Assembly: GCA_028714475.1 (NCBI GenBank)
Contig: JAQTNC010000001.1
Span: forward strand, 22,678 to 86,677
Reading direction: 5' to 3'
Length of the DNA: 64,000 nucleotides
DNA from: Patescibacteria group bacterium
GTDB lineage: Bacteria > Patescibacteriota > Patescibacteriia > SG8-24
Shown piece after piece: positions 39,922 to 63,301 of this stretch. A program made the position numbers and the translations under genes. The stretch's first letter is position 1; each line of letters begins with the position of its first letter. A model generated the notes under the pieces. It made no database searches. It had not been told where the DNA came from and saw only the letters and a program-made list of their open reading frames with translations.

Positions 39922-40299
39922 ATGTCGCAAGCGACTTTCCAGAAACTGCTCTTTGCCTGCCTGACCGCCGGCGCCCTCGATGTCGCCATCATGTTCCAGT
40001 GGTTTGCCCCACACCAAGAGGCGCTGACAGCGGTCTTCATGCTCTTCGTTGGCGGGATAATCACGCTCGGCGGCTTCAGCGCCTTCGCGAACGCCTGCGC
40101 CATCGTATTAACCACCACTGTCGTGGCCGGCATCGTCGGCTGGCAATACACCTACCCATCCGTGATGGCGTCTGACTGGCCCGCCCTGTCACCCAACATG
40201 GCATTTCTGGCCTTTCTGGGTGCGGAACTGCTGGGGCTGGTCCTGGTGGTCAAGGCCTTGCGGCCGGCTCTCGAACGACTCGGCAAATGGCCGTGGTGA
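39922..40299 (+). CDS. small membrane protein (4 TM)
   Basis: Begins MSQATFQKLLFACLTAGALDVAIMF. A terminator hairpin GGCGGCC...GGCCGCC plus T-run directly follows. Confidence 0.5.
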   Translation: MSQATFQKLLFACLTAGALDVAIMFQWFAPHQEALTAVFMLFVGGIITLGGFSAFANACAIVLTTTVVAGIVGWQYTYPSVMASDWPALSPNMAFLAFLGAELLGLVLVVKALRPALERLGKWPW

Positions 40300-40317
40300 A
40301 ATCGAGCCACAACTTGT

Positions 40318-40374
40318 CGTCTACCCGTGCCGCTGGCGGCCCCTCACCCTTGAGGCGGCCGCCACTGTTTTTAC
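40318..40374 (+). terminator. terminator of the small membrane-protein gene, immediately preceding repeat D1
   Basis: GGCGGCCcctcacccttgaGGCGGCCGCC + ACTGTTTTTA. Confidence 0.6.
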
Positions 40375-40745
40375 GGAATATATTGTGCGAAGCACACTTT
40401 GCGGACAAGATGACTTCATCTCGCGAGGCCACCCTGTACCGTAATGGTACAGGGTTCCGCAGGCCGAGCGCATACTATATATAGGTTGGTGGGACGAAGC
40501 CGCGGGTGACGCGGAGCGGGGCGACCGACGGGCGGACCCGGTTCCGGAGACAATCGCTCGCGCAATTACGCATCCAGCGCGAGCGCTGTCGACGGAAGCG
40601 GGCCCGACCGGCGGGAGCACGGGTTGGTGACTTGCATGTGGAATCGCGGCAGGACCCGCGGCCGGTTGTTTCTGAGCCTCTGCCTTCACGAGAACGACAT
40701 AATCAATAAACCCAGGCACAAAGCCCGGGCTTGTTGTTTATATAT
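40375..40745. repeat. ~370-bp structured repeat D1 (between a plus-gene terminator and the metK stop)
   Basis: Blocks shared with D2: attgtgcgaagcacactttgcgga; gcaggccgagcgcatac; gccgcgggtgacgcggagcgggg ... gcggcaggacccgcggc (a long-range pair GCCGCGGG/CCCGCGGC). The variable inserts are perfect hairpins (CCCTGTACCgtaatGGTACAGGG). Confidence 0.6.
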
Positions 40746-40757
40746 GGAATGTCGCCG

Positions 40758-41795
40758 TCAGTTCAGCACGATATGCTCCCACGGGAAACCGTCGCGGCCG
40801 AAATGCCCGTAGGCGGCCGTCTGGCGGTAAATGGGTCGGCGCAGGCCGAGTCGCTCGATGATGGCGCGCGGCCGGAAATCAAATTGATCCTTCAAATATC
40901 CAGTCAGGTCGCGCCCGTCGCCGCCGACCGCGCGGAGCATTACCGGCTCTTCCTTGCCGATGACGTAAGCGACGGAAACGAGACAGTTCTTGGCGTGGCC
41001 GTTTGCGACGATGTTCTTCGCGGCGAAGCGCGCCATATATGCGCCCGAGCGATCCACCTTGGTCGGATCCTTGCCGGAGAACGCGCCGCCGCCGTGCGGG
41101 ATGAGTCCGCCGTAGGTATCCACCATCAGCTTGCGGCCGGTGAGCCCGGTGTCCGCGCGGAATCCGCCGTCCACGAACGAGCCGGTCGGGTTCACGTAGA
41201 TGCGCGTCGCGCCCGGGTCGCCGAGGAGCGGATCAACGAGATGCTTGAGCAGGAGCTTCTTGATTTCCGCGACGCCGATGTCATCACTGTGTTGGGCCGA
41301 GACGACGATCGCGTCAACGCGACCGTGGTCAACGGTCACCTGCGACTTGCCGTCCGGCTTGAGCCAGGTGAACTCCGGATGATTGCGGCGCAGGTCCGCG
41401 AGGCCCCAAGTCAAACGGTTCGCGAGCACGACCGGTTCCGGCAGGAATTCCGACGTCTCGCACGTGGCGTAGCCGTACATGATGCCCTGGTCGCCGGCGC
41501 CGCCCACGTCCACGCCGCGCGCGATGTCACGCGACTGTTCCTCCACGTTGGTGAAGACCTCGAGTTCGTCGTCGTAGCCTATGTCGCGATAGACGCGCTC
41601 TGCCACCTGGGCCAAATCAATTTCCGCCTGCGAAGTGACTTCGCCGCCGATCATGAGCGCGCCGTGAGAGCCGAAAACCTCCACCGCCACGCGGCTCGCT
41701 GGGTCACGGCTCAAGTAGGCGTCCAGAATGGCGTCAGCGATTTGGTCGCAGACCTTGTCCGGGTGGCCTTCGGTGACGGATTCGACGGTTTTCAT
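40758..41795 (-). CDS. metK: S-adenosylmethionine synthetase (short 345-aa form)
   Basis: ESVTEGHPDKVCDQIAD, GGGAFSGKDPTKVDRSGAYMAR, FVDGGFRADTGLTGRKLMVDTYGG. Confidence 0.9.
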   Translation of the reverse strand: MKTVESVTEGHPDKVCDQIADAILDAYLSRDPASRVAVEVFGSHGALMIGGEVTSQAEIDLAQVAERVYRDIGYDDELEVFTNVEEQSRDIARGVDVGGAGDQGIMYGYATCETSEFLPEPVVLANRLTWGLADLRRNHPEFTWLKPDGKSQVTVDHGRVDAIVVSAQHSDDIGVAEIKKLLLKHLVDPLLGDPGATRIYVNPTGSFVDGGFRADTGLTGRKLMVDTYGGLIPHGGGAFSGKDPTKVDRSGAYMARFAAKNIVANGHAKNCLVSVAYVIGKEEPVMLRAVGGDGRDLTGYLKDQFDFRPRAIIERLGLRRPIYRQTAAYGHFGRDGFPWEHIVLN

Positions 41796-41798
41796 GAC

Positions 41799-41807
41799 TG
41801 TGGATAA
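41799..41807 (-). promoter_or_regulatory. perfect DnaA-box 9-mer immediately 5' of the metK start codon
   Basis: Minus-strand TTTATCCACAgtcATG. It sits in the divergent region shared with the metallophosphoesterase gene. Confidence 0.5.
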
Positions 41808-42026
41808 ATGTTTCCCGGCCGACTCCTCGGCCTGACGATATGAAGTCAGGATACGTCAAAATAGCACAAAAGCCAGTATTTGTCCAGACCCCCGCCAAGG
41901 CTTGATACTTTCGTTTAATCATGCGGACGCCGATGTTACGATTGAGTTAACGCAGGTGGTATGGTCCATCTGCGTTGAGCGAAAGCTCATTGTCAATTCA
42001 CGAGAGGGAATAGAAGGAGAGCCATC

Positions 42027-44141
42027 ATGGCAAACCGGAAACCAGCCCGTCCGACTGCTACCGAAGAGACCGAGTGCCGCATCCTCGTGGCCTCCCAGCT
42101 GATGTACCCGAGCCACGATCACCGCGTGGGATTCCTGAAGCTCATGGCGCAAGTCGCCAAGGAGCGGGACGCCCACTACGTCGTCATGGCCGGAGGACTG
42201 GTCAGCGAAAAGGGCGTGAAAGACACGCGCCGAGGCCTCGAGCGACGGCTGAAGAAGCTCGACAAGGAGCAGCAGGCCCTCGAGGAGAAGCACGAGAAAA
42301 CGACCAACCCGCGGACTCGGCGCGCCCAAGAGCGCCGACTGGCAACCATCGCGAAGAAGCAGCAGCGGTTCACCCGCTTCCTGCATCACCTGGAGCCGTC
42401 GGCCATCGCCAGGCAGTTGGCACAAGCGATTCCGAGTTTCGTGAACGCGGCCGGGGATCCCATCAAGATGTATGTGTTCCCGTCCCCGCAACTCGACGGC
42501 GTCATCGGCAACCAAGTCGCCGACATCCTGTCGGCCAGGCTGCGCAAGGGCGAAGTGTTTTCCTACCCGCAGGACAATCCGACCCTGCTGGCCACCCAGG
42601 CCGGCAAGAGGGTCGAGGTCCTGGTGCCGATGCACGGCAGTTTCCGCGGTGAGTACTCGTCGACGCCGATCCAGCGCCGTTTGCTCGAGCGCATGAAGCT
42701 GCCGAGGCGGCGTTTGCCGGATCTCTTCATCGTCGGCGGTCACGGCGTCACCTGGTTCAAGCCGATCGGGAATTACCCGGTGCCCATCGTCGGCGTGCCG
42801 ATGATGAACGGCTCGTCCGCGGTACAGGTCGCGGAAAACCAGGTCGGTGTGACGCTCATCACGTTGCGGCGCGGCGACCCCGAGCCGACCGTGGAGGTCA
42901 TCCCGCTCCAGGACGCCCTGCTCACCGAGCTCATGCACATCCGGATGCCCAAGAAGGTCAAGCCGCGCCAGAGGCAGCTGCTCGAGATCCTTCAGCGAGA
43001 AGGCGAGCAGACCATCGGCGTAATGGCGGACAAGACCGGCCTCGACAGGGAACAGATCGACGCGGCCCTGCGCCCGTTCGTCGGTGACGGCACCGTCAAC
43101 AGGCAATGGGACCTGAAGTGGCACGAGGACTCGGGGCGCTGGGGTTGGAACCCGTATTGGGTACGCAAGTACCTGGAGTACCCGCCCATGGCGGCCGCCC
43201 AAGCCACGGACACGATCACCGCGTTCGGTTGCCTGCATGCGGCCTCCGTGTGCAACGACCCGGAACTGTTCCTGGAGACCCTGCCTCGATCCATGATCGA
43301 GAACGGCTCCAACCTGCTCATCGGCGCCGGCGACTTCACGAACGGCGACAAGCACCCTGGGCTGGTTCAGGAAACGGTCTTCCGGATCAAGGCCGGCGAA
43401 CAGGAGCTTCTGGCCGGAGAGATGGTCGCCAAGGCCATGCTCAAGGTGTTCTACCACCGGTTTGCCGCCGCCGTGGCGACGAATCGGCCGACCACCCCCG
43501 TGCAAGGCCTCGCGCTGGTCAATGCCTGCCTGCCGGATTTCCGCTACATCCTCGGCAACCACGACTTGTGGGTCGGGGATCGCGGTATGATCCCGCTCGA
43601 CGGGTTCCGGCGCATGGCGGTCGATGTCCTGTTCGACGCCATCGAAGCGGCACTCGGCGAACTGGATCTGACGGTTCGCGGCCTCAAGCGTGCCATCGAG
43701 GGCAAGGTGAAGCTGGTGGGAGAGGAAGAGAACGAGCGCCTGACGCTGCCGTCCGGGCTCCGCGTTGGTCTCACGCACCCGCACATGGGCCGGACGAAGA
43801 CGGAAAGCATTCGCACCCAGGAGGCCTTGGCCTTCATGCGCGACTGCCACATCGTCTTCGTGGCCAACTTCCATGTCGGTTCCGTGACGGCCATCTATGA
43901 CTCGGAACTGGGCCAGCGTTTCGGCGTCCAGCTCGGCACGATCCTGCAGGGTTCCGGCTTCGAGCGTCACCGCATGAAGGAAGTCGACAACCACATCGCG
44001 GTCTGCCATGTCGGCTCCACGAACGGCCGCATCGTTTGGCACCGGCACACCTATCGCGACGGCGTCCGCTGGACGAAGCCGCGGTTCGCACCGGATCACG
44101 CCTACCAAGCGGCCCGCAAGGCCGTTGGGTTGGTCGCCTAA
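42027..44141 (+). CDS. protein with two calcineurin-like metallophosphoesterase domains (the first degenerate) and a coiled-coil insert
   Basis: RBS GAAGGAGAG. Domain 2 has GCLHAAS, LLIGAGDFTNGDKH and ILGNHDLW (GD/GNHD motifs). Domain 1 has RILVASQ..SHDH, VVMAGGLVS and FIVGGHG. The overlapping antisense ORF 41919..44108 was rejected on composition. Confidence 0.65.
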   Translation: MANRKPARPTATEETECRILVASQLMYPSHDHRVGFLKLMAQVAKERDAHYVVMAGGLVSEKGVKDTRRGLERRLKKLDKEQQALEEKHEKTTNPRTRRAQERRLATIAKKQQRFTRFLHHLEPSAIARQLAQAIPSFVNAAGDPIKMYVFPSPQLDGVIGNQVADILSARLRKGEVFSYPQDNPTLLATQAGKRVEVLVPMHGSFRGEYSSTPIQRRLLERMKLPRRRLPDLFIVGGHGVTWFKPIGNYPVPIVGVPMMNGSSAVQVAENQVGVTLITLRRGDPEPTVEVIPLQDALLTELMHIRMPKKVKPRQRQLLEILQREGEQTIGVMADKTGLDREQIDAALRPFVGDGTVNRQWDLKWHEDSGRWGWNPYWVRKYLEYPPMAAAQATDTITAFGCLHAASVCNDPELFLETLPRSMIENGSNLLIGAGDFTNGDKHPGLVQETVFRIKAGEQELLAGEMVAKAMLKVFYHRFAAAVATNRPTTPVQGLALVNACLPDFRYILGNHDLWVGDRGMIPLDGFRRMAVDVLFDAIEAALGELDLTVRGLKRAIEGKVKLVGEEENERLTLPSGLRVGLTHPHMGRTKTESIRTQEALAFMRDCHIVFVANFHVGSVTAIYDSELGQRFGVQLGTILQGSGFERHRMKEVDNHIAVCHVGSTNGRIVWHRHTYRDGVRWTKPRFAPDHAYQAARKAVGLVA

Positions 44142-44223
44142 CGAACCCCTCTCGACGAGCGCATCAGCCTGACGGAGCTTTCCGGCAGGCTGATTTTAGT
44201 ATTTTCGCCAGGTCTAGCCTATT

Positions 44224-44291
44224 CAAATCTACCCGGCAGATTTGACGCGAAAACTGCCGGGTAGATTTGGAGTCAAAACTGCCGGGTAGAT
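44224..44291. promoter_or_regulatory. three-box repeat array (one 15-bp box inverted relative to two direct copies), candidate operator or attenuator
   Basis: AAATCTACCCGGCAG atttgacgcgaaaa CTGCCGGGTAGATTT ggagtcaaaa CTGCCGGGTAGATT. Box 1 is the exact reverse complement of boxes 2 and 3. It lies 77 nt upstream of the gene at 44368. Confidence 0.55.
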
Positions 44292-44367
44292 TCCGACCGT
44301 CGCAGACCGCTTGACGTCCTCCCCCGCCCTGCTACGGTAAAAATTACCCCCACCCAAGGAGGTCATC

Positions 44368-44697
44368 ATGTCGCGCTGGCCTCTTCTGGCCCTTGTCGCT
44401 CTCGCCGCCGTTCTTGCCCTGCCGCTCGTCCGGGGGCCGCTCTGGCTGTCCATCACCTGTACTGCCTTCCTGACCGGTGTGGCCGGCCTCGCGCTCACGC
44501 GCGTGCGGTCCGCCCTGCTCGCGCTCCTTCTCGTTTTTGGCGCCGCTCTCGCCGCCCTGCAGTTCCTGTGGCGCGTGTATCGGCCCGGCGCCTACCCGCC
44601 AATCGTGGCGCTCTACAGCGTCCAATGCGGACTGGTGTTCGTCGCCATCGCCGCCGTCACGATTGTCATCCTTGTCCGCCGCCGCTGGCGAAAATGA
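44368..44697 (+). CDS. small membrane protein (3 TM)
   Basis: RBS AAGGAGG. Begins MSRWPLLALVALAAVLALPLV. Preceded by an inverted/direct repeat array. Confidence 0.55.
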   Translation: MSRWPLLALVALAAVLALPLVRGPLWLSITCTAFLTGVAGLALTRVRSALLALLLVFGAALAALQFLWRVYRPGAYPPIVALYSVQCGLVFVAIAAVTIVILVRRRWRK

Positions 44698-44829
44698 CCC
44701 CATGCCAAGCGTGGGGTCATTATATTATCGAAAATTTGCCGGACGCGACCCTTGACAGAATCTGCCGTCCCCGCTAATTTATCGTCAGCCGTAGCTCCTT
44801 TCAGGCTAACGGAGATTGGAGAGGAATCC

Positions 44830-45630
44830 GTGACGAACAAACCTTCCGACCCCATTGGGCTGTTCATCTTAAGTGCGCTCGCCTACCCGATTGTGTGCCT
44901 GCTGACCAAGGCCCTGCCGTTCCTGCCAGCCGAGTCGCCGGTCTACGCCGTCGCCGCCATCGCCTTCATCACGACCATGGTGAACAACGACCGGTCGGAA
45001 GGCATGGCGAAGAGGCTCTGGCGCGGCCGCACCATACCGCTCTGGCTCGGCGCGCTCCTCGGCCTTGCTCTCGTGCTCACGCCCCTCTGGGCCAAGATGT
45101 GGCACGAGGGCGGCGAGAACAAGGACTTGTTGTTCGTCATCCTGTCGGCCTTCAAGGTGACCGGCTGGGTCATGGGCACGTCCGTCGCGGCCATCGTCCT
45201 TTCGGCCGTCATGTCCATGGACGTCAAGGGTGCCTTCAAGCTGGGCTGGGTATTTTCCCTAGTCTCTTCCCTGGTCATGGGCTTGTCATGCATGGCGGTT
45301 TCAAATTGCATGCTATGCCTGAACTGGACGGACAGTGACTCCGGCTTAACCTTGGCCTTGGTCGCCTTGCTCCTCACCGCCACCATAGGCGGCGACGCTT
45401 CCGACAGCGACATTCAAGCCAAGCCGTGGCGGTTCATCGGGAGTCAATTGTCCGGCTTGACCGTTTGGCTGTTGCTGTCGGCTGTGGTCGCGACCGTTTT
45501 CTTCAACAGCGTGGCCCTTTTCGCCAATCTGCCCAGTCCGCTGGCTTTTGGCCTCTGGGTTGCCCTCGGCTCGGCCGCCGCCATCGCCATGCGCGTAAAA
45601 TCCGCTCTCGAAGAAGAGCCGGCCGACTGA
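44830..45630 (+). CDS. polytopic membrane protein
   Basis: GTG at 44830 after GGAGAGG. About 8 TMs. A terminator hairpin CGCCCATCGTC...GACGATGGGCG plus T-run follows. Confidence 0.5.
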   Translation: MTNKPSDPIGLFILSALAYPIVCLLTKALPFLPAESPVYAVAAIAFITTMVNNDRSEGMAKRLWRGRTIPLWLGALLGLALVLTPLWAKMWHEGGENKDLLFVILSAFKVTGWVMGTSVAAIVLSAVMSMDVKGAFKLGWVFSLVSSLVMGLSCMAVSNCMLCLNWTDSDSGLTLALVALLLTATIGGDASDSDIQAKPWRFIGSQLSGLTVWLLLSAVVATVFFNSVALFANLPSPLAFGLWVALGSAAAIAMRVKSALEEEPAD

Positions 45631-45631
45631 C

Positions 45632-45682
45632 GCCGCCCGCTTCGAACCCGCCCATCGTCTCCGCGACGATGGGCGTTGTGTA
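45632..45682 (+). terminator. terminator of the membrane-protein gene, immediately preceding repeat D2
   Basis: CGCCCATCGTCtccgcGACGATGGGCG + TTGTGTAATAAATT. Confidence 0.7.
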
Positions 45683-46025
45683 ATAAATTGTGCGAAGCAC
45701 ACTTTGCGGAATAGACGACTTCCTTTCGCTCGGCCAGGCGACGCTTTGCGTCGCCCCGCAGGCCGAGCGCATACACATATTTGTTGGTAGAACGAGGCCG
45801 CGGGTGACGCGGAGCGGGGACCCCGATGGCGCGCATCCCTCACCATTTCCGCTCCGTTTTTTCACCGACGGAAATGGTGAGGGAGAGCACCAGCGGGGTG
45901 CGGAGCGGCAGGACCCGCGGCACGTCAGGCCTGGTTTGTCGCTTTCGTGGGAATGACAACAAAGGAATGCCCTTCGACAAGCCGTGCACCATGACGGTGC
46001 GCGGCAAGCTCAGGGCATATTTATT
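45683..46025. repeat. ~340-bp structured repeat D2 (between a plus-gene terminator and the helicase stop)
   Basis: Same conserved blocks as D1. The inserts at equivalent positions are different perfect hairpins (GGCGACGCtttgCGTCGCC; CCCTCACCATTTCCG...CGGAAATGGTGAGGG). Confidence 0.6.
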
Positions 46026-46039
46026 TATTGTTGCTCAAA

Positions 46040-48130
46040 CTAATAATCCCCCAAAAAGCTTTTCTTCTTCCAATCCTTCTTGACCTGCTGCATGCGGTTC
46101 TTCACGCCCTGCATGGCGCTCGTTGGCTCGCCGTCCGCGCCAATCTCCACCGCCTCGTCATCATAATCATCGTCGCCAGAAAACTCACTGAACCCGCACT
46201 TTCGTCCGGTCGGGTCGCTCACGCAGTTCGGCGAAATTTCGTCGAGGAACATCGAGCGCTCCTCAAACTCGATGGAACCGCGCCCGACCGAGGCCGGATG
46301 CGACAGGTAAAGTCGATCCTTGGCGCGAGTGACGGCGACGTAGAAAAGCCGCCGCTCCTCTTCCACGCCGCCCTGTTCCTCAAGCGCGCGACGGTTCGGG
46401 AAACTCGACGCCGTAAGATGAATGACAAAAACAATCGGCCACTCCAACCCTTTGGCTTGATGAACGGTCGAAAGCACGACCTGGTTCGCGCCCTTGACGT
46501 GTCCGCCAGTCGCCCGCGCCTCGTCAAGCGTCACCTCCGCGAGGAAATCGTCGAGCTTGACGTAGGGCTCGGCAAAACGCGCCATCTGCTCAAGATCCTC
46601 CAGCCGCTCGCGGAAATTCGGAAATTCAGCTTCGAGAAAATCCGCGTACGGCGACTTGATGACGCTACGAATGAGCGCGGCGGGCACATCGCCAGCCGCC
46701 ACGACCTCCTCAAGCGTCGCGTGCAAATCGCGCCAACCGACCGCGCCGCGATTACCGACGATGCTTTCGCCATCGAGCAGCGGTATCCGTTCCAGCGAAC
46801 CGCCCTGCCGAAAGGTCATGAGCAGACGCCCCGCGGCCACCTCGCCGATGCCGGTCCAATGGTTTTCGAGAACGCGTCGCCACGCCGCCTCGTCGGCGAA
46901 ATTCTGGCGCACGCGCAGGAAGGCCAACGTGTCCTTGACGTGGGCGCGGTCGAAGAAGCGCAAGCCGCCGCGATAGTCGTAAGGAATGCCGCGCCGCGTC
47001 AACTCGAACTCCAACGCCTGCGAATGGCTGGCGGCCCGAAACAGCACGGCGATATCTACCGGTCGCGTGCCGGTTCGCAAAAGCTTCTCAATGGAGTTGG
47101 CGACAAACTCCGCCTCGCGCGAGGCCGACGGCGAGGGCACAATGGCCGGTTTCTCCTGCCCGCCGCGTACGGCCGCGAGCTCCTTAGGGAACTGCTCGAC
47201 ATTCTTGGCGATGATGTCGTTGGCCAAGCCGAGGATTTCCGGCGTCGAGCGGTAATTCGTCTCCAGCTTGAAGACGCGCGCCTCCGGATAATGCTTAGGG
47301 AAATCCAGGATGTTGCGCACGTCCGCGGCGCGAAAGGAGTAGATGCTCTGGGCGTCGTCGCCGACCACGAGCAGGTTGTGTTTCGGCCCGGCGAGCCGAC
47401 GGATAAGGGCGTTCTGCAAGGCGTTCGTGTCCTGATACTCGTCAACCAAAATGTACTTGAACTGGCTCGACAGCCGCTCGCGCACGAGCGGGTCATCCTC
47501 CAAGAGCCGCGCTAGGCGCACCAACAGGTCGTCGAAATCCATGGCATTGGCCGCGAGCTTCTTTTTTTCATAAAGGTCCGCCACGGCCTGTAATTCCGCC
47601 ATGATGCCGAGGAAATGCGGGTGCAACTTCATGAGTGCCGCCTCAAAAGACATCTGCGCGTTGCGCCGATAAGAGACGACATCCTGAACGACGGCCGGCG
47701 AGGGAAAACGCCGCCCGGCCTTGTCGTGTCCGAGCTCCTTGATGCTCGCCTTATAGAGAGAGCGCGAGTCGTCCTGATCCAGAATGGTGAACGACGGCGT
47801 ACAGCCTACGCGGTCGGCATAGACGCGCAAAAGCCGGTTGGCAACCGAATGGAACGTCCCGCCCCAGAGTCCGAGCGGCCGCCGCGAACCAGCCGCACCC
47901 AGCAGCTCGCCAATGCGCGTCATCATCTCGTTGGCAGCCTTGTTGGTGAAAGTGAGCAGGAGGATGTTCTCCGGCGCGATGCCGTGCTCGATGAGCCAGG
48001 CGACGCGATAGACGATGGTGCGCGTCTTGCCCGAACCGGCGCCGGCCAAAACCAAACACGGCCCGTCACCCTCACGGACGACGGCCAGCTGTTCGGCATT
48101 CAGTTCGTTTTCGTAATCAAGACGAGACAT
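46040..48130 (-). CDS. ATP-dependent DNA helicase, UvrD/PcrA/Rep family
   Basis: LNAEQLAVV, AGAGSGKTRT (Walker A), LLTFTNKAANEM, ILVDEYQDTN, VVGDDAQSIYSFRAA, QNYRS, TVHQAKGLEW. The C-terminal ~60-aa acidic tail is extra. Confidence 0.9.
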   Translation of the reverse strand: MSRLDYENELNAEQLAVVREGDGPCLVLAGAGSGKTRTIVYRVAWLIEHGIAPENILLLTFTNKAANEMMTRIGELLGAAGSRRPLGLWGGTFHSVANRLLRVYADRVGCTPSFTILDQDDSRSLYKASIKELGHDKAGRRFPSPAVVQDVVSYRRNAQMSFEAALMKLHPHFLGIMAELQAVADLYEKKKLAANAMDFDDLLVRLARLLEDDPLVRERLSSQFKYILVDEYQDTNALQNALIRRLAGPKHNLLVVGDDAQSIYSFRAADVRNILDFPKHYPEARVFKLETNYRSTPEILGLANDIIAKNVEQFPKELAAVRGGQEKPAIVPSPSASREAEFVANSIEKLLRTGTRPVDIAVLFRAASHSQALEFELTRRGIPYDYRGGLRFFDRAHVKDTLAFLRVRQNFADEAAWRRVLENHWTGIGEVAAGRLLMTFRQGGSLERIPLLDGESIVGNRGAVGWRDLHATLEEVVAAGDVPAALIRSVIKSPYADFLEAEFPNFRERLEDLEQMARFAEPYVKLDDFLAEVTLDEARATGGHVKGANQVVLSTVHQAKGLEWPIVFVIHLTASSFPNRRALEEQGGVEEERRLFYVAVTRAKDRLYLSHPASVGRGSIEFEERSMFLDEISPNCVSDPTGRKCGFSEFSGDDDYDDEAVEIGADGEPTSAMQGVKNRMQQVKKDWKKKSFLGDY

Positions 48131-60126: not shown

Positions 60127-61716
60127 TTAAATCAACGGACAGCCCGTCATCTCGGCCGGCTGGGGCACGCCGAGGAGCTTAAGCACCGTCGGCGCGGTGT
60201 CGGCAAGCATGCCGACCGGCGGCATGATGGAAAGGTCGCCGCCGACCGTTTCTCCCGAAGGCGAAGCCTGCCCCTGGAACTCCCGCCCAACCACCAGGAA
60301 CGGCACCGGGTTCGTGCTGTGTTCCTTGTCAATTTCGCCGGTCTGCAGGTTCAGCACCTCTTCGCCGTTGCCATGATCGGCCGTCATGACCATCACTCCG
60401 CCCGCCTCCAGAAGCGCCGGGACGAGGCGGCCGAGGCACTGGTCAATCACCTCCACGCCCTGTTTGGTCGGCTCGAACTTGCCGGTGTGACCGACCATGT
60501 CGGCGTTGGCAAAATTGCAGATGATGAGGTCGAATTTCTGGTCCTGGATTTCCTTGATGATGCGGTCGGTGAGTTTCGGCGTGGACATGGCTGGCGCCTG
60601 GTCGTAGGAGGAAACGCGCGGCGACGGGATGATGACGCGTTCCTCGCCGGGAAGCGGCTCCTCGCGCATGCCGTTCATGAAGAAGGTGACGTGCGCATAT
60701 TTTTCCGTCTCGGCGATATGCAGCTGCTTCAGCCCGGCGTCGGACACGACCTTGGCCAGGCAGGTCTCGACCATCTCCGGCGGATAGGCGACGTGCGCCG
60801 GCGTCCCTTTCTCGTACTGCATCATCGTGGCGAAATACAGGTCCTTGATCGGCTCGCGCGCGAACTTGCTGAAATCCGGCACGCAGAAGGCCTGGGCGAT
60901 CTGGCGCGCGCGATCCGGCCGGAAGTTGGCGAAGATGAGGGCGTCGCCGTCTCGCACCGGCGCCACCGGCTGGCCGCCGGCCGTGATGATGGTCGGCACA
61001 AATTCCTCGTCATAGACCTTGTTCGCGTATGACTCCTCGATGGCCTTGACCGGATCCTCATGCGTCTTGTCCGCGCCCTTGCCGGTGATGGCGTTATACG
61101 CCTTTTCGACGCGATCCCAGCGGTTGTCGCGATCCATCGCCCAAAAGCGGCCGGACAGGTCGGCGATGCGGCCACTGCCCAACTGCTCCATCCGACTCTG
61201 CAGATTACGGACGAACTCGATGCCGCTGTTGAAAATGCTGTCGCGGCCGTCCAGGAAAGCGTGCACGGCAATTTTCTTGATGCCGTTCTGGGCCGCCAGC
61301 TGGACCAGCGAGTAGATGTGCTCGTCCGAGCCGTGAACGCCGCCGGGACTGACGATGCCCATGACGTGGAAGGTCGAGTCGTTCTTCTTGCATTGTTCGA
61401 CCGCGCCCAAAAAAACCTCGTTCTTGAAAAACGAGCCGGTCTGGATGGCCATGTTGATGCGAGGCAGGGACTGGTAGAAGATCTTGCCGGCGCCGATGGT
61501 CAGGTGACCAACTTCCGAATTGCCCATCTCGCCCCAAGAGAGGCCGACGGCCTCGCCGGAAGCGCGCACCGTCACGGTCGGATAGGTGCGGATGAGCTCG
61601 TCGAAAACCGGCGTGTTCGCGGCCTCGACCGGATTGCCCTCGCCCGGCGGGGCGACGCCCCAACCGTCACAAATGAGGAGCAGGACCGGCTTCGGTTTTC
61701 CCCGAACAGGCATCAT
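60127..61716 (-). CDS. gpmI: 2,3-bisphosphoglycerate-independent phosphoglycerate mutase
   Basis: LLICDGWG, EVGHLTIGAGKI, ADMVGHTG, MVMTADHGN. Confidence 0.9.
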   Translation of the reverse strand: MMPVRGKPKPVLLLICDGWGVAPPGEGNPVEAANTPVFDELIRTYPTVTVRASGEAVGLSWGEMGNSEVGHLTIGAGKIFYQSLPRINMAIQTGSFFKNEVFLGAVEQCKKNDSTFHVMGIVSPGGVHGSDEHIYSLVQLAAQNGIKKIAVHAFLDGRDSIFNSGIEFVRNLQSRMEQLGSGRIADLSGRFWAMDRDNRWDRVEKAYNAITGKGADKTHEDPVKAIEESYANKVYDEEFVPTIITAGGQPVAPVRDGDALIFANFRPDRARQIAQAFCVPDFSKFAREPIKDLYFATMMQYEKGTPAHVAYPPEMVETCLAKVVSDAGLKQLHIAETEKYAHVTFFMNGMREEPLPGEERVIIPSPRVSSYDQAPAMSTPKLTDRIIKEIQDQKFDLIICNFANADMVGHTGKFEPTKQGVEVIDQCLGRLVPALLEAGGVMVMTADHGNGEEVLNLQTGEIDKEHSTNPVPFLVVGREFQGQASPSGETVGGDLSIMPPVGMLADTAPTVLKLLGVPQPAEMTGCPLI

Positions 61717-61720
61717 AGCG

Positions 61721-63301
61721 TCAGCTGCGCAGGAGGGAGAAACCGGTCATTTCCACCGGCTTTGGCAATTCCATGATATCGAGAATGGTCGGGGCGATGT
61801 CGGCCAGCATGCCGTCGCCAAGACGGGCGCGGCGGAACTTCTCGCTGGCCAGGATGAACGGCACGGGATTGGTCGTGTGTTCGGTCATGACTTCTCCCGT
61901 CTGCGGGTTGACCTTGCACTCGGCGTTGCCGTGGTCGGCCGTGATGACAAGATGCCCCTTGGCTTCCTTCACGGCCTCATGAATCTGTCCCAAGCAGACA
62001 TCCACCGACTCCATTGCCTTGACCGTGGCCGCCAGGTTGCCGGTATGGCCGACCATGTCAAGGTTGGCGAAATTCAGGCAGATGAAATCATGTTGTCCGT
62101 TCTTGATGCGGCGCACGACCTCGGAGGCGATGGTCGGGGCGCGCATCTCCGGCTTGTCGTCGTAATGGGCGATGAACGGGGACGGGATGCGCATGCGCTC
62201 CTCGCCGGCTCGCGTGTCGGCGAAACCGCCGTTGAAGAAGTAGGTGACGTGGGCGTACTTCTCCGATTCGGCGATGTAGAACTGGCGGAGCGGTGCCATC
62301 ACCTCGGTCATGCCGAGCTGGATGTCGCGACTCGGGAAGGCGGTGAAAACGTGGGGCAGGTCAGGGCCGAAGTCGGTCATGGCGGCGAAGCGGGTGTTCT
62401 TCGGCACGCGCTTGCGCTTGAAGGCGTTCTCGTTGTGCAGCTCGAAATCCTTCTGCACGAAGCACTTGGTCAGCTCACGGGCGCGGTCAGACCGCAAGTT
62501 GAAGTAGATGAAGACGTCGTTGTCCCCGACCGCGCCCAGCGGCCGGTGTTCATCGTCGGTGATGACCGTCGGCAGGAGATACTCGTCACTCTCGCCGCGG
62601 TTGTAACCGTGCAGGATGGCCGCGTGCGCGCTTGGGGCGACCAGACCCTCGCCGTTCACGATGGCGTTGTAAGCCATCTCGATGCGATTCCAACGCTTGT
62701 TGCGGTCCATGGCGTAGAACCGGCCCATGATGGTGGCGATGGCTTGGTTCGGATAAAGCTTGGGCTCCAGGTCATGCAGGAGCCGCGTGGCCGAGAACGG
62801 CGGCGAGTCGCGGCCGTCAGTGAAGAGATGAAGCCGCACCTTGTCCATGCCCTCCTCGTGGCACAGCTTGAGCATGGCGTAGAGATGATCCGGGCAGGAA
62901 TGGGCGCTGTTGCCGTTGGACATGAGGCCCAAGAGATGGACTTTGGTGCCGTATTTCTGGGCGTGCTTAAAGACCTCCTTGAACGCCATGTTCTTGAAGA
63001 AGGTGCGGTCCTTGATGGCTTCGGAAACGTAAACGATATCCTGCCGCACGATGCGGCCGGCGCCGATGTTCATGTGACCGGCTTCGGAGTTTCCCTCCTG
63101 ATCCGGCAGGAGGCCGACGTAACGGCCATGCGCCATGAGCTGGGTGTGCGGATAGCGGGCGCGGATGGCGTCGAGCACCGGCGTTTTAGCGAGGGTGACG
63201 GCGTTGCTGTTGGCCGGCGGAGCGATGCCCCAGCCGTCCAATACAGCCAAAACGACCGGCGCCGGACGGGCAGGTTTTGAGGCCTTTTTTGGCATATTCA
63301 T
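61721..63301 (-). CDS. gpmI: 2,3-bisphosphoglycerate-independent phosphoglycerate mutase, second tandem paralog
   Basis: VLAVLDGWG, EAGHMNIGAGRI, LDMVGHTG, LVITADHGN. Less than 50% identical to the upstream copy by eye. Confidence 0.9.
   Translation of the reverse strand: MNMPKKASKPARPAPVVLAVLDGWGIAPPANSNAVTLAKTPVLDAIRARYPHTQLMAHGRYVGLLPDQEGNSEAGHMNIGAGRIVRQDIVYVSEAIKDRTFFKNMAFKEVFKHAQKYGTKVHLLGLMSNGNSAHSCPDHLYAMLKLCHEEGMDKVRLHLFTDGRDSPPFSATRLLHDLEPKLYPNQAIATIMGRFYAMDRNKRWNRIEMAYNAIVNGEGLVAPSAHAAILHGYNRGESDEYLLPTVITDDEHRPLGAVGDNDVFIYFNLRSDRARELTKCFVQKDFELHNENAFKRKRVPKNTRFAAMTDFGPDLPHVFTAFPSRDIQLGMTEVMAPLRQFYIAESEKYAHVTYFFNGGFADTRAGEERMRIPSPFIAHYDDKPEMRAPTIASEVVRRIKNGQHDFICLNFANLDMVGHTGNLAATVKAMESVDVCLGQIHEAVKEAKGHLVITADHGNAECKVNPQTGEVMTEHTTNPVPFILASEKFRRARLGDGMLADIAPTILDIMELPKPVEMTGFSLLRS

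Follow-up and report, generated by a model that had tools for sequence, protein, structure and literature searches.

What are the two imperfect repeats that bracket metK and its neighbours in the chromosome of a Patescibacteria group bacterium? The window analysed here, a GC-rich (~60%) stretch of 64,000 nucleotides from contig JAQTNC010000001.1, carries one of them, D1, at 40377-~40705, and the other, D2, at 45682-~45965, with a terminal hairpin that extends the latter to 46018. The original prediction saw in them the flanks of a 5-kb block and weighed a pair of non-coding RNA genes against an ancient segmental duplication or recombination boundary, an interpretation that we found to be partly supported. 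Our own answer, to which we give a probability of about 0.7, is that D1 and D2 are two copies of a GC-rich repeat, ~300 nt long, which forms several hairpins, is non-coding and non-autonomous, and was inserted in two spacers between convergent genes. This answer is built on their membership in a dispersed family, on the inverted repeats and target duplications of full-length copies, on filled and empty sites, random orientation and tolerance in coding sequence, and on the absence of the repeats from syntenic relatives. The family is a previously uncatalogued one, of the palindromic kind to which MITEs (miniature transposable elements with inverted repeats), Rickettsia palindromic elements (RPEs) and ERIC (enterobacterial repetitive intergenic consensus) elements belong, and D2 is an embedded and probably immobile copy of it.

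D1 and D2 are real repeat copies and not chance matches. They have in common four invariant blocks of 17-23 nt, three of which, TTGTGCGAAGCACACTTTGCGGA (at 40383 and 45688), GCCGCGGGTGACGCGGAGCGGGG (40499 and 45797) and GCGGCAGGACCCGCGGC (40646 and 45905), occur exactly twice in the 64 kb, always on the plus strand, against 0.00-0.09 matches expected from dinucleotide shuffles; the fourth, CCGCAGGCCGAGCGCATAC, is found at 40457 and 45756. Pairwise alignment gave 75% identity over 467 columns, in which the invariant blocks alternate with unalignable stretches. With all exact blocks on one strand and a start-to-start distance of 5305 nt, the description of the pair as imperfect direct repeats in the same orientation holds. 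The fold of the whole of D2 reached z = -9.2 relative to shuffles and that of its main arm alone z = -7.3, and the hairpin tips of both copies are perfect Watson-Crick palindromes with zero wobble pairs.

The main arm of D2 (45789-45928, plus strand) belongs to a family of GC-rich hairpin elements. The 20-mer GCGGGTGACGCGGAGCGGGG, the 5' block of the family (45800-45819 in D2, and the same in D1 and in the Omnitrophota copies), was used to scan 185,579 species genomes, which gave 42 loci, ~25 of them true copies with a common architecture and nearly all in metagenome-assembled genomes (MAGs) of groundwater Candidatus Omnitrophota. JACPTX has at least 10 copies, on 9 contigs, and JACQRB 4, and the position of several copies is at the end of a contig. 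Metagenomes, scanned with two blocks, contributed 85 further loci, which brought the total to 98 distinct copies, up to 2 of them per 5 kb; four of the metagenome copies lie in contigs of 37-51% GC. From 14 Omnitrophota copies only, found by the 20-mer scan, we built a covariance model, R1, and used it in cmsearch. The main arm of D2 matched R1 with 65 bits (E 1.1e-10) over model positions 1-122, that is, the full model, and it shows the features by which members are recognized: an outer helix P1, the 5' strand GUGACGCGGAGCGGGG, a covarying helix P3 and the 3' strand GCGGCAGGACCCGC. The 3' family block of D2, GCGGCAGGACCCGCGGC, occupies 45905-45921, and its ACCCGCGGC closes P1 with GCCGCGGGT at 45797-45805. 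The main arm of D1 (40499-40662, plus strand) has both family blocks exact, as in D2, around a longer and different interior, owing to which R1 matched it in pieces only. No third copy was found in the window with R1.

R1 aligned 99 copies, and in this alignment, whose fit to the model favours the pairing figures, 86.6% of cells pair, compared with 66.8% in shuffles and 31-44% when the partner strand is slid. Double changes were seen in 28 of the 35 pairs, and the helices of the family are backed by compensatory changes across copies. The fold is a rod, consisting of P1, an imperfect helix of the near-invariant strands GUGACGCGGAGCGGGG and GCGCAGCGGCAGGAC, P3 and an exchangeable apical hairpin; even in the orthologous copies L016 and L061, with flanks that are ~95% identical, the tip modules are unlike. 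A 15-bp perfect hairpin had been singled out in D2 and called an insert. The hairpin is indeed present, CCCTCACCATTTCCG (45837-45851) pairing with CGGAAATGGTGAGGG (45869-45883) across a 17-nt loop, but because it is located in the variable apical module of the family (45837-45883) it represents a swapped tip and not an insertion into a fixed sequence.

Several further observations concern individual copies or their surroundings. L014:1-68 has the same flanks as L001:10-152 and lacks the whole interior, its 5' block being joined directly to TCGCGCAGCGGCAGG; as this copy lies at a contig end, either the interior was truly deleted or the assembly collapsed across the hairpin. The copies L051, L069, L104, L119, L120, L126 and L035 contain a small palindrome, CCTGCCTGCCGGCAGGCAGG, as an inserted module, and a close variant of it stands alone just past the helicase stop in L135 (L135:12075-12110), a relative of the window from the Candidate Phyla Radiation (CPR); it may be a separate unit, similar to repetitive extragenic palindromic (REP) sequences, common to two phyla. 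In L133:3480-3600, past the terminator of a 705-aa gene, a GC-rich nested hairpin (GTTCGCCGCGG...CCGCGGCGAAC) contains GGGGTGACAC, CAGGACC and AGCAGCGGCAGCCGG, strings that echo the conserved strands of the family; R1 did not detect this hairpin, which may be a distant family relative. Finally, a c-di-GMP-I riboswitch match (38.1 bits, gathering threshold 35) was obtained on the minus strand of an Omnitrophota-type metagenome contig (L067:1213-1409), ~150 nt from an element copy.

Neither Rfam 15 nor the searchable literature yielded a description of the family. No Rfam 15 family, including SAM riboswitches, Y RNA, 6S, SRP and ribozymes, matched the window at its gathering threshold, only chance matches to eukaryotic miRNAs and snoRNAs appeared there at E values of up to 10, and no Rfam match overlapped the copies in 15 copy-bearing loci.

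How such a family spreads is best seen in Omnitrophota, where the full-length copies behave as MITEs. They are bounded by terminal inverted repeats of the form GGTRGTG-(6-8 variable, mutually complementary nt)-KTTTG, and outside these lie direct target-site duplications of 6-9 bp, mostly 8 bp, exemplified by CGGCTAAC in L051, GACCCAAG in L060 and GCTCGCTGA in L107, with further cases in L048, L054, L117, L096, L053 and L003. The inverted-repeat consensus on both ends, GGTRGTGGKCAAGTTTG, resembles the ends of IS1A from Escherichia coli K-12, GGTAATGACTCCAACTT and GGTGATGCTGCCAACTT; in direct comparison, the family ends read GGT[AG][AG]TG and those of IS1A GGTAATG and GGTGATG. Insertion sequences of the IS1 family (ISfinder) have ends of the form GGnnnTG and generate duplications of 8-9 bp, and the ends and duplications of the full-length copies fit this form. 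The flanks of the copies are complementary, with a mean Watson-Crick run of 5.1 versus 1.3 for shuffled partners. Insertion into pre-existing palindromes or terminators was considered as the source of this outer-stem complementarity, on the first ground that flanks are unlike between copies with identical interiors, and was largely dropped, the flanks being inverted repeats that target duplications enclose. The middle of the inverted repeats varies, but the two remain complementary from one copy to the next, which a selfish repeat does not account for.

The genomic contexts of the copies are also those of a mobile repeat. Orientation relative to the neighbouring genes is random (11 sense-tandem, 10 antisense-tandem, 9 divergent and 7 convergent), and an all-against-all comparison of the open reading frames (ORFs) of 25 loci revealed no recurrent neighbouring gene. 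The pdxJ-acpS-dehydratase operons of L021 and L012 are syntenic, yet the spacer that carries the element is not the same in both: the site filled in L021 corresponds to an empty spacer in L012. At L012:2124-2155, the 3' end of pdxJ is joined to a 5' half-element, GCGGGTGACGCGGAGCGGGGGCCCCTGCCGCC, from which the last ~15 codons of the gene derive; the L021 orthologue of pdxJ ends differently. A second, AT-rich miniature element at L106:6623-6735 has the same inverted repeats (GGATAGTGTCTTAATTTG / CAAATTAAGACAGTACC) around a wholly different interior, and its target duplication, CGTGAAAT, measures 8 bp; several types of cargo are probably moved by a single transposase. A search for a long autonomous version, in which orphan 5' and 3' blocks were allowed to stand up to kilobases apart, gave only chance matches in coding DNA.

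Family members are tolerated even within genes. In L094 and L118 the element lies inside an ORF for a 449-aa FAD-dependent oxidoreductase, where it is read in frame as RGVTRSGGPPSSTRSKLSFARTSDGGTERQDPE. The L094 copy (L094:681-795, minus strand, within the ORF L094:104-1453 on a 38%-GC contig) forms a 33-residue insert, and the L118 copy has the same sequence. The closest homologues of this oxidoreductase are labelled Candidatus Levybacteria. When orthologues were aligned, 7 of 12 had an insert at the element site and the other 5 a short loop only; the ends of the insert are conserved (..GVTR.GG.. and ..RQDPE..) and its middle is variable. The insert is shown by this alignment, the match to the Protein Data Bank covering only the N-terminal FAD motif. 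RPEs have been described as repeats residing in frame in protein genes (PMC10969869), and such a residence holds for the Levybacteria member of the family, not for D2.

The gene order around D1 and D2 bears on whether the repeats mark the edges of a moved or duplicated block. Between them lie metK (40758-41795, minus strand), a 704-aa ORF (42027-44141, plus) and two membrane-protein ORFs (44368-45630, plus, the second at 44752-45630), and beyond D2 follows a UvrD-type helicase ORF (46040-48130, minus, Pfam; stop codon 46040-46042). The 704-aa ORF had been labelled a two-domain metallophosphoesterase; Pfam did not confirm this, only a GNHD motif being visible. The relatives L135, L136 and L137, with helicases 59-63% identical to that of the window, have in common with it the long-range order of cofactor-independent phosphoglycerate mutase (iPGM), Fpg, PAP2, YceG, DUF2207, helicase, a convergent 720-aa homologue of the 704-aa ORF and metK, and in L133 metK adjoins the 704-aa homologue. 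No family member was found in the L135, L136, L137 and L133 loci with the filters off (best E 0.026, inside a gene), and both homologous spacers of L135 contain ordinary hairpins only. The order of helicase, 704/720-aa gene and metK is therefore ancestral, and D1 and D2 are later arrivals.

This makes it very unlikely that D1 and D2 are the edges of an ancient segmental duplication, or of a 5-kb block, reaching from metK to the membrane genes, whose mobilisation or recombination took place between the repeats, as had been proposed: the same order exists without D, and D-type units and the family core stand at many unrelated loci, which are the two observations that the original prediction had named as refuting its idea of a block boundary. 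Besides, no duplication was found within the block, whose GC content is the same as that of its surroundings. What speaks for a boundary is that direct repeats bracket 5.3 kb, that synteny with two more relatives, L043 and L044, breaks exactly at the 3' end of the helicase gene, and that homologous MITEs are able to mobilise the DNA between them (PMC10969869). Furthermore, L135 lacks the two membrane genes beside D2, its 720-aa gene and its helicase gene facing each other directly (L135:12064-12205); these two ORFs were inserted into the spacer now occupied by D2, or beside it.

In the window, the family hairpin is part of a longer unit, laid out in the same way in D1 and D2. Both units occupy convergent spacers, start after a terminator-like hairpin of a plus-strand gene and end before a minus-strand stop codon; D1 lies just past the metK stop, matching the placement of D2, which ends just beyond the stop of the minus-strand helicase ORF, as the original prediction had stated. 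The left limit of D2 is the terminator-like hairpin GCCCATCGTC/GACGATGGGC of the upstream membrane-protein gene (45650-45674, plus), which is outside the repeat and absent from D1. Block A comes first, at 45682-45710 in D2 (AATAAATTGTGCGAAGCACACTTTGCGGA, with the palindrome TGTGC-GAA-GCACA) and at 40377-40405 in D1, both on the plus strand. Hairpin 2 follows on the same strand. In D2 (45727-45769) it has the base CGCTCGGCC/GGCCGAGCG and a perfect 8-bp tip, GGCGACGC-TTT-GCGTCGCC; in D1 (40422-40470) the base is CGCGAGGCC/GGCCGAGCG, with a tandem G.A/A.G mismatch, and the tip, CCCTGTACC-GTAAT-GGTACAGGG, is a perfect 9-bp one unrelated to the D2 tip at the same place. After the main arm comes a tail motif, GCTTTCGTGGGAATGACAACAAAGG (45941-45965, plus), also present in D1 (~40683-40705). 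Homology between the units stops near 45965, and the hairpin that follows in D2 (45967-46018) is absent from D1. The long hairpin ATGCCCTTCGACAAGCCG...CGGCAAGCTCAGGGCAT at 45967-46035, with T-rich runs on both strands and no homology to D1, is probably the bidirectional terminator of the helicase gene; our terminator scan did not flag it, its loop being longer than 8 nt. The corresponding limit of D1 is a hairpin with a T-run just beyond the metK stop (40758), found by the terminator scan at 40708-40732 on the minus strand as the metK terminator. At the 3' end of each unit there is thus a hairpin followed by a T-rich run on the plus strand (40708-40745 in D1, 45967-46035 in D2), and these hairpins also serve the convergent genes.

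The same architecture recurs outside the window. L044, a CPR contig whose helicase is 69% identical to that of the window, gave two R1 matches with the filters off (36.6 and 35.8 bits, E ~3e-6), and both units, X and Y, show the whole D layout: CACTTTGCGAA, then TCGCGAGGCC..hairpin..CGCAGGC(C)GAGCG, then the arm. The block A motif CACTTTGCGRA of D2 is also present in both. Their near-invariant strands are replaced by GGCGCGGTTTC and GAAACCGCGAC, with a perfect helix CGCGGTTTC/GAAACCGCG; this argues for a helix with bulges and against a large loop in this region, and backs the rod model. X and Y lie upstream of the helicase gene, at loci unrelated to the D1 and D2 sites, and L043, another relative at 69% identity with the same local order (DUF1059, 103-aa gene, helicase), lacks both. 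The part GAATGACAACAAA of the tail motif adjoins unit X as well, and its position is swapped: D1 and D2 have it 3' of the arm, whereas in L044 it lies ~60 nt to the 5' side of unit X (L044:1213-1240, minus strand), a hint that D-type units were once tandem or that their modules were permuted.

Several of our results weigh against the reading of D1 and D2 as inserted mobile repeats. They lack recognisable terminal inverted repeats, having only a GGTAG/GGTGG-like 5' remnant and no matching 3' end, and no target-site duplications were found around them or around unit Y of L044. A tblastn search with IS1 InsA/InsB gave no match in ~0.9 Mb of locus DNA, and the all-against-all ORF comparison revealed no transposase either. 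Across phyla, the interior strands of the family are far better conserved than its inverted repeats, the reverse of what is expected from purely transposase-driven spread, which suggests a sequence-specific function. In D1 and D2, blocks of 100% identity adjoin tips that were replaced altogether, as could also result from purifying selection on an RNA. D1, D2, X and Y are all directed at a convergent gene's 3' end, with its terminator immediately adjoining, as would be expected of an independent transcription unit. In helix P3, finally, the plus strand shows 26 G.U versus 3 A.C cells, a skew that comes from few inherited variants and not from independent events, for which reason strand assignment by wobble counts was abandoned. 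The outer stem of the family is symmetric in this respect (16 G.T versus 16 A.C), and differences in minimum free energy between the strands are small (mean -0.95 kcal/mol), so that neither measure served to assign a strand.

Such observations could be accommodated if D1 and D2 were paralogous genes of a structured small RNA (sRNA) of ~300 nt, with a promoter of its own in or just upstream of block A and an end at the bidirectional terminator common to the convergent gene. The family hairpin would then be a domain with a function, such as a rod that binds a protein, and would have been either the source of the mobile element or exapted from it. We regard this as possible, although clearly less probable than insertion of a mobile repeat. 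The conservation is block-wise and both hairpin tips were replaced with the structure kept, yet tips that are perfect palindromes favour an origin at the DNA level. The units run from terminator to terminator, from the hairpin of the upstream gene to the hairpin and T-run that would act as an intrinsic terminator at their own 3' end, and all four are convergent with the neighbouring gene, but a sigma-70 scan of the plus strand (40000-46400) found no promoter, a weak negative since little is known about promoters in CPR bacteria; the TATATT/TAAATT of the 5' edge lacks a -35 partner, and the four units yielded no common -35/-10 pair. G.U pairs that are possible only on the plus strand occur in the outer stem of D1, whereas the orientation of the family relative to transcription is random. 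The combination of CACTTTGCGRA, hairpin 2 and arm persists in L044 despite the 69% identity of the helicases, but the units are absent from the homologous spacers of four syntenic relatives (L135-L137 and L043), and in the window there are only two copies, none at a conserved position. MITE-derived sRNAs are known in Coxiella (PMC10969869).

A related and somewhat more doubtful proposal is that the D-type unit is a lineage-specific structured RNA of Patescibacteria, in which the helix of GUGACGCGGAGCGGGG opposite GCGCAGCGGCAGGAC would be a sequence-specific platform binding a protein or another RNA. If this were true, the same module would ride an IS1-like MITE in Omnitrophota and sit in frame in Levybacteria proteins, and the identity across phyla would reflect selection on the module together with recent DNA exchange among ultra-small groundwater bacteria, not the mere youth of a selfish repeat.

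A regulatory role in cis, as a riboswitch, attenuator or thermometer for metK, the helicase or the membrane genes, appears the least probable of all the explanations considered. Although D1 adjoins metK and the interior of the arm is strongly conserved, metK and the helicase gene are on the opposite strand and D lies past their stop codons, the fold is a rod-like hairpin and not a multi-helix junction, the family adjoins unrelated genes in every orientation, and neither a SAM riboswitch nor any other regulatory RNA emerged from the Rfam searches described above. A SAM or other riboswitch upstream of metK was rejected on the same grounds: metK is on the other strand, D1 is past its stop, and Rfam was negative. 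We also rejected, by eye, REP doublets forming hairpins (REPINs) with their REP-associated tyrosine transposases (RAYTs), integron attC sites, bulge-helix-bulge introns, target hairpins of diversity-generating retroelements, CsrA sponges (GGA motifs) and k-turns, as the asymmetry of the arm, the contexts and the motif geometry do not fit them.

Insertion of a mobile repeat thus remains the reading we favour, and the history it implies may be sketched as follows. In Omnitrophota the hairpin forms the body of a classical MITE, whose inverted repeats and 6-9-bp target duplications are the signature that a DDE transposase of IS1 type would leave when acting in trans. In the lineage of the window, the hairpin is part of the longer unit of block A, hairpin 2, main arm and tail, itself repeated and gained or lost between related genomes. 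Because neither D1 nor D2 is flanked by inverted repeats or target duplications, this unit would have spread by duplication or recombination rather than by cut-and-paste. Its present role is most likely passive, with copies located where insertion is harmless; at most, it would add a very stable hairpin beside the bidirectional terminators of convergent genes, as with ERIC, REP and Correia elements.

The remaining content of the window is that of a CPR chromosome. Its housekeeping genes include PGI, two iPGM genes, YceG and Fpg, along with MacB-type transporters; a phage or plasmid origin was ruled out by the housekeeping genes and by synteny with CPR relatives, and a search for tRNA and tmRNA found none. 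The nearest other relatives of the helicase carry the labels Patescibacteria, Uhrbacteria or Parcubacteria. The two iPGM genes are full-length, tandem and adjacent (60127-61716 and 61721-63301), and such a tandem pair is also present in L135. Between the 704-aa ORF and the first membrane ORF, at 44221-44297 and ~70 nt upstream of AAGGAGG-ATG at 44368, there is an arm, AATCTACCCGGCAG, whose complement, AAAACTGCCGGGTAGATT, comes after it in two direct copies. Either of two hairpins that exclude each other could form here, or a DNA-binding protein could have three half-sites; the Rfam mir-8 match at the same place (E 0.005) is a chance match to the hairpin.

For the annotation of this genome, our results imply that the D elements should be treated as inserted repeats, and not as scars of a block duplication or as regulators of the helicase or metK. 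As strands of 20 nt and 14 nt are identical in Omnitrophota and at least two CPR lineages, the family could mark horizontal DNA flow among ultra-small groundwater bacteria. Assemblies also break at the element, leaving it at contig ends, a point of relevance to MAG quality.

Among known systems, MITEs of the IS1 type come closest. They resemble the family in length (~110-190 bp), in the lack of an ORF, in the many dispersed intergenic copies per genome, in the inverted repeats starting with GGTRGTG and the direct duplications of 6-9 bp, in the folding of the whole element into one long hairpin and in the existence of filled and empty orthologous sites. Unlike them, the family has an interior that is much more conserved than its ends, in several phyla, and inverted-repeat middles that vary by copy and still match each other; no parent insertion sequence was seen in the loci examined, and D1 and D2, the only two copies of the window, are embedded in a longer repeated unit, without inverted repeats or target duplications. 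REP sequences, their mosaics (bacterial interspersed mosaic elements, BIMEs) and REPINs share with the family the nature of GC-rich extragenic palindromes, often between convergent genes, and BIME mosaics resemble the multi-hairpin D unit. REP/REPIN units are, however, ~35 nt long, headed by GTAG, arranged as inverted duplicates and served by a RAYT gene, whereas the family has no GTAG head, carries the same 9-mer GCGSAGCGG in both arms in direct orientation, has target duplications and showed no RAYT gene; an identity with REP/REPIN was rejected on account of the missing GTAG, the arms that are not inverted copies and the lack of a recurrent neighbouring gene. ERIC sequences, or intergenic repeat units (IRUs), of Enterobacteria are imperfect palindromes of ~127 bp whose sequence, and not the flanking DNA, is conserved across genera, with internal insertions at fixed sites, either orientation to transcription and a possible effect on mRNA stability. 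The family differs from ERIC in sequence and hosts, is much more GC-rich, and has a target duplication of 8 bp, that of ERIC being TA. A likeness to the QMITE-derived CbsR RNAs of Coxiella, in which a MITE hairpin makes up the body of an sRNA (PMC10969869), would apply only if D1 and D2 were transcribed. RPEs, palindromes of ~100-150 bp found both between genes and in frame in genes, where they are translated as a peptide insert (PMC10969869), show no evident sequence relatedness to the family, which has Omnitrophota and CPR hosts instead of Rickettsia, inverted repeats with target duplications in its full-length form, and in D2 an intergenic copy. The carriage of a family member in frame inside a conserved enzyme through Levybacteria speciation nevertheless parallels them in a very different lineage with reduced genomes. 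Taken together, D2 itself is an ordinary inserted repeat, and it is the family behind it that combines a reach across phyla, an ultra-conserved interior and in-frame residence in a conserved enzyme.

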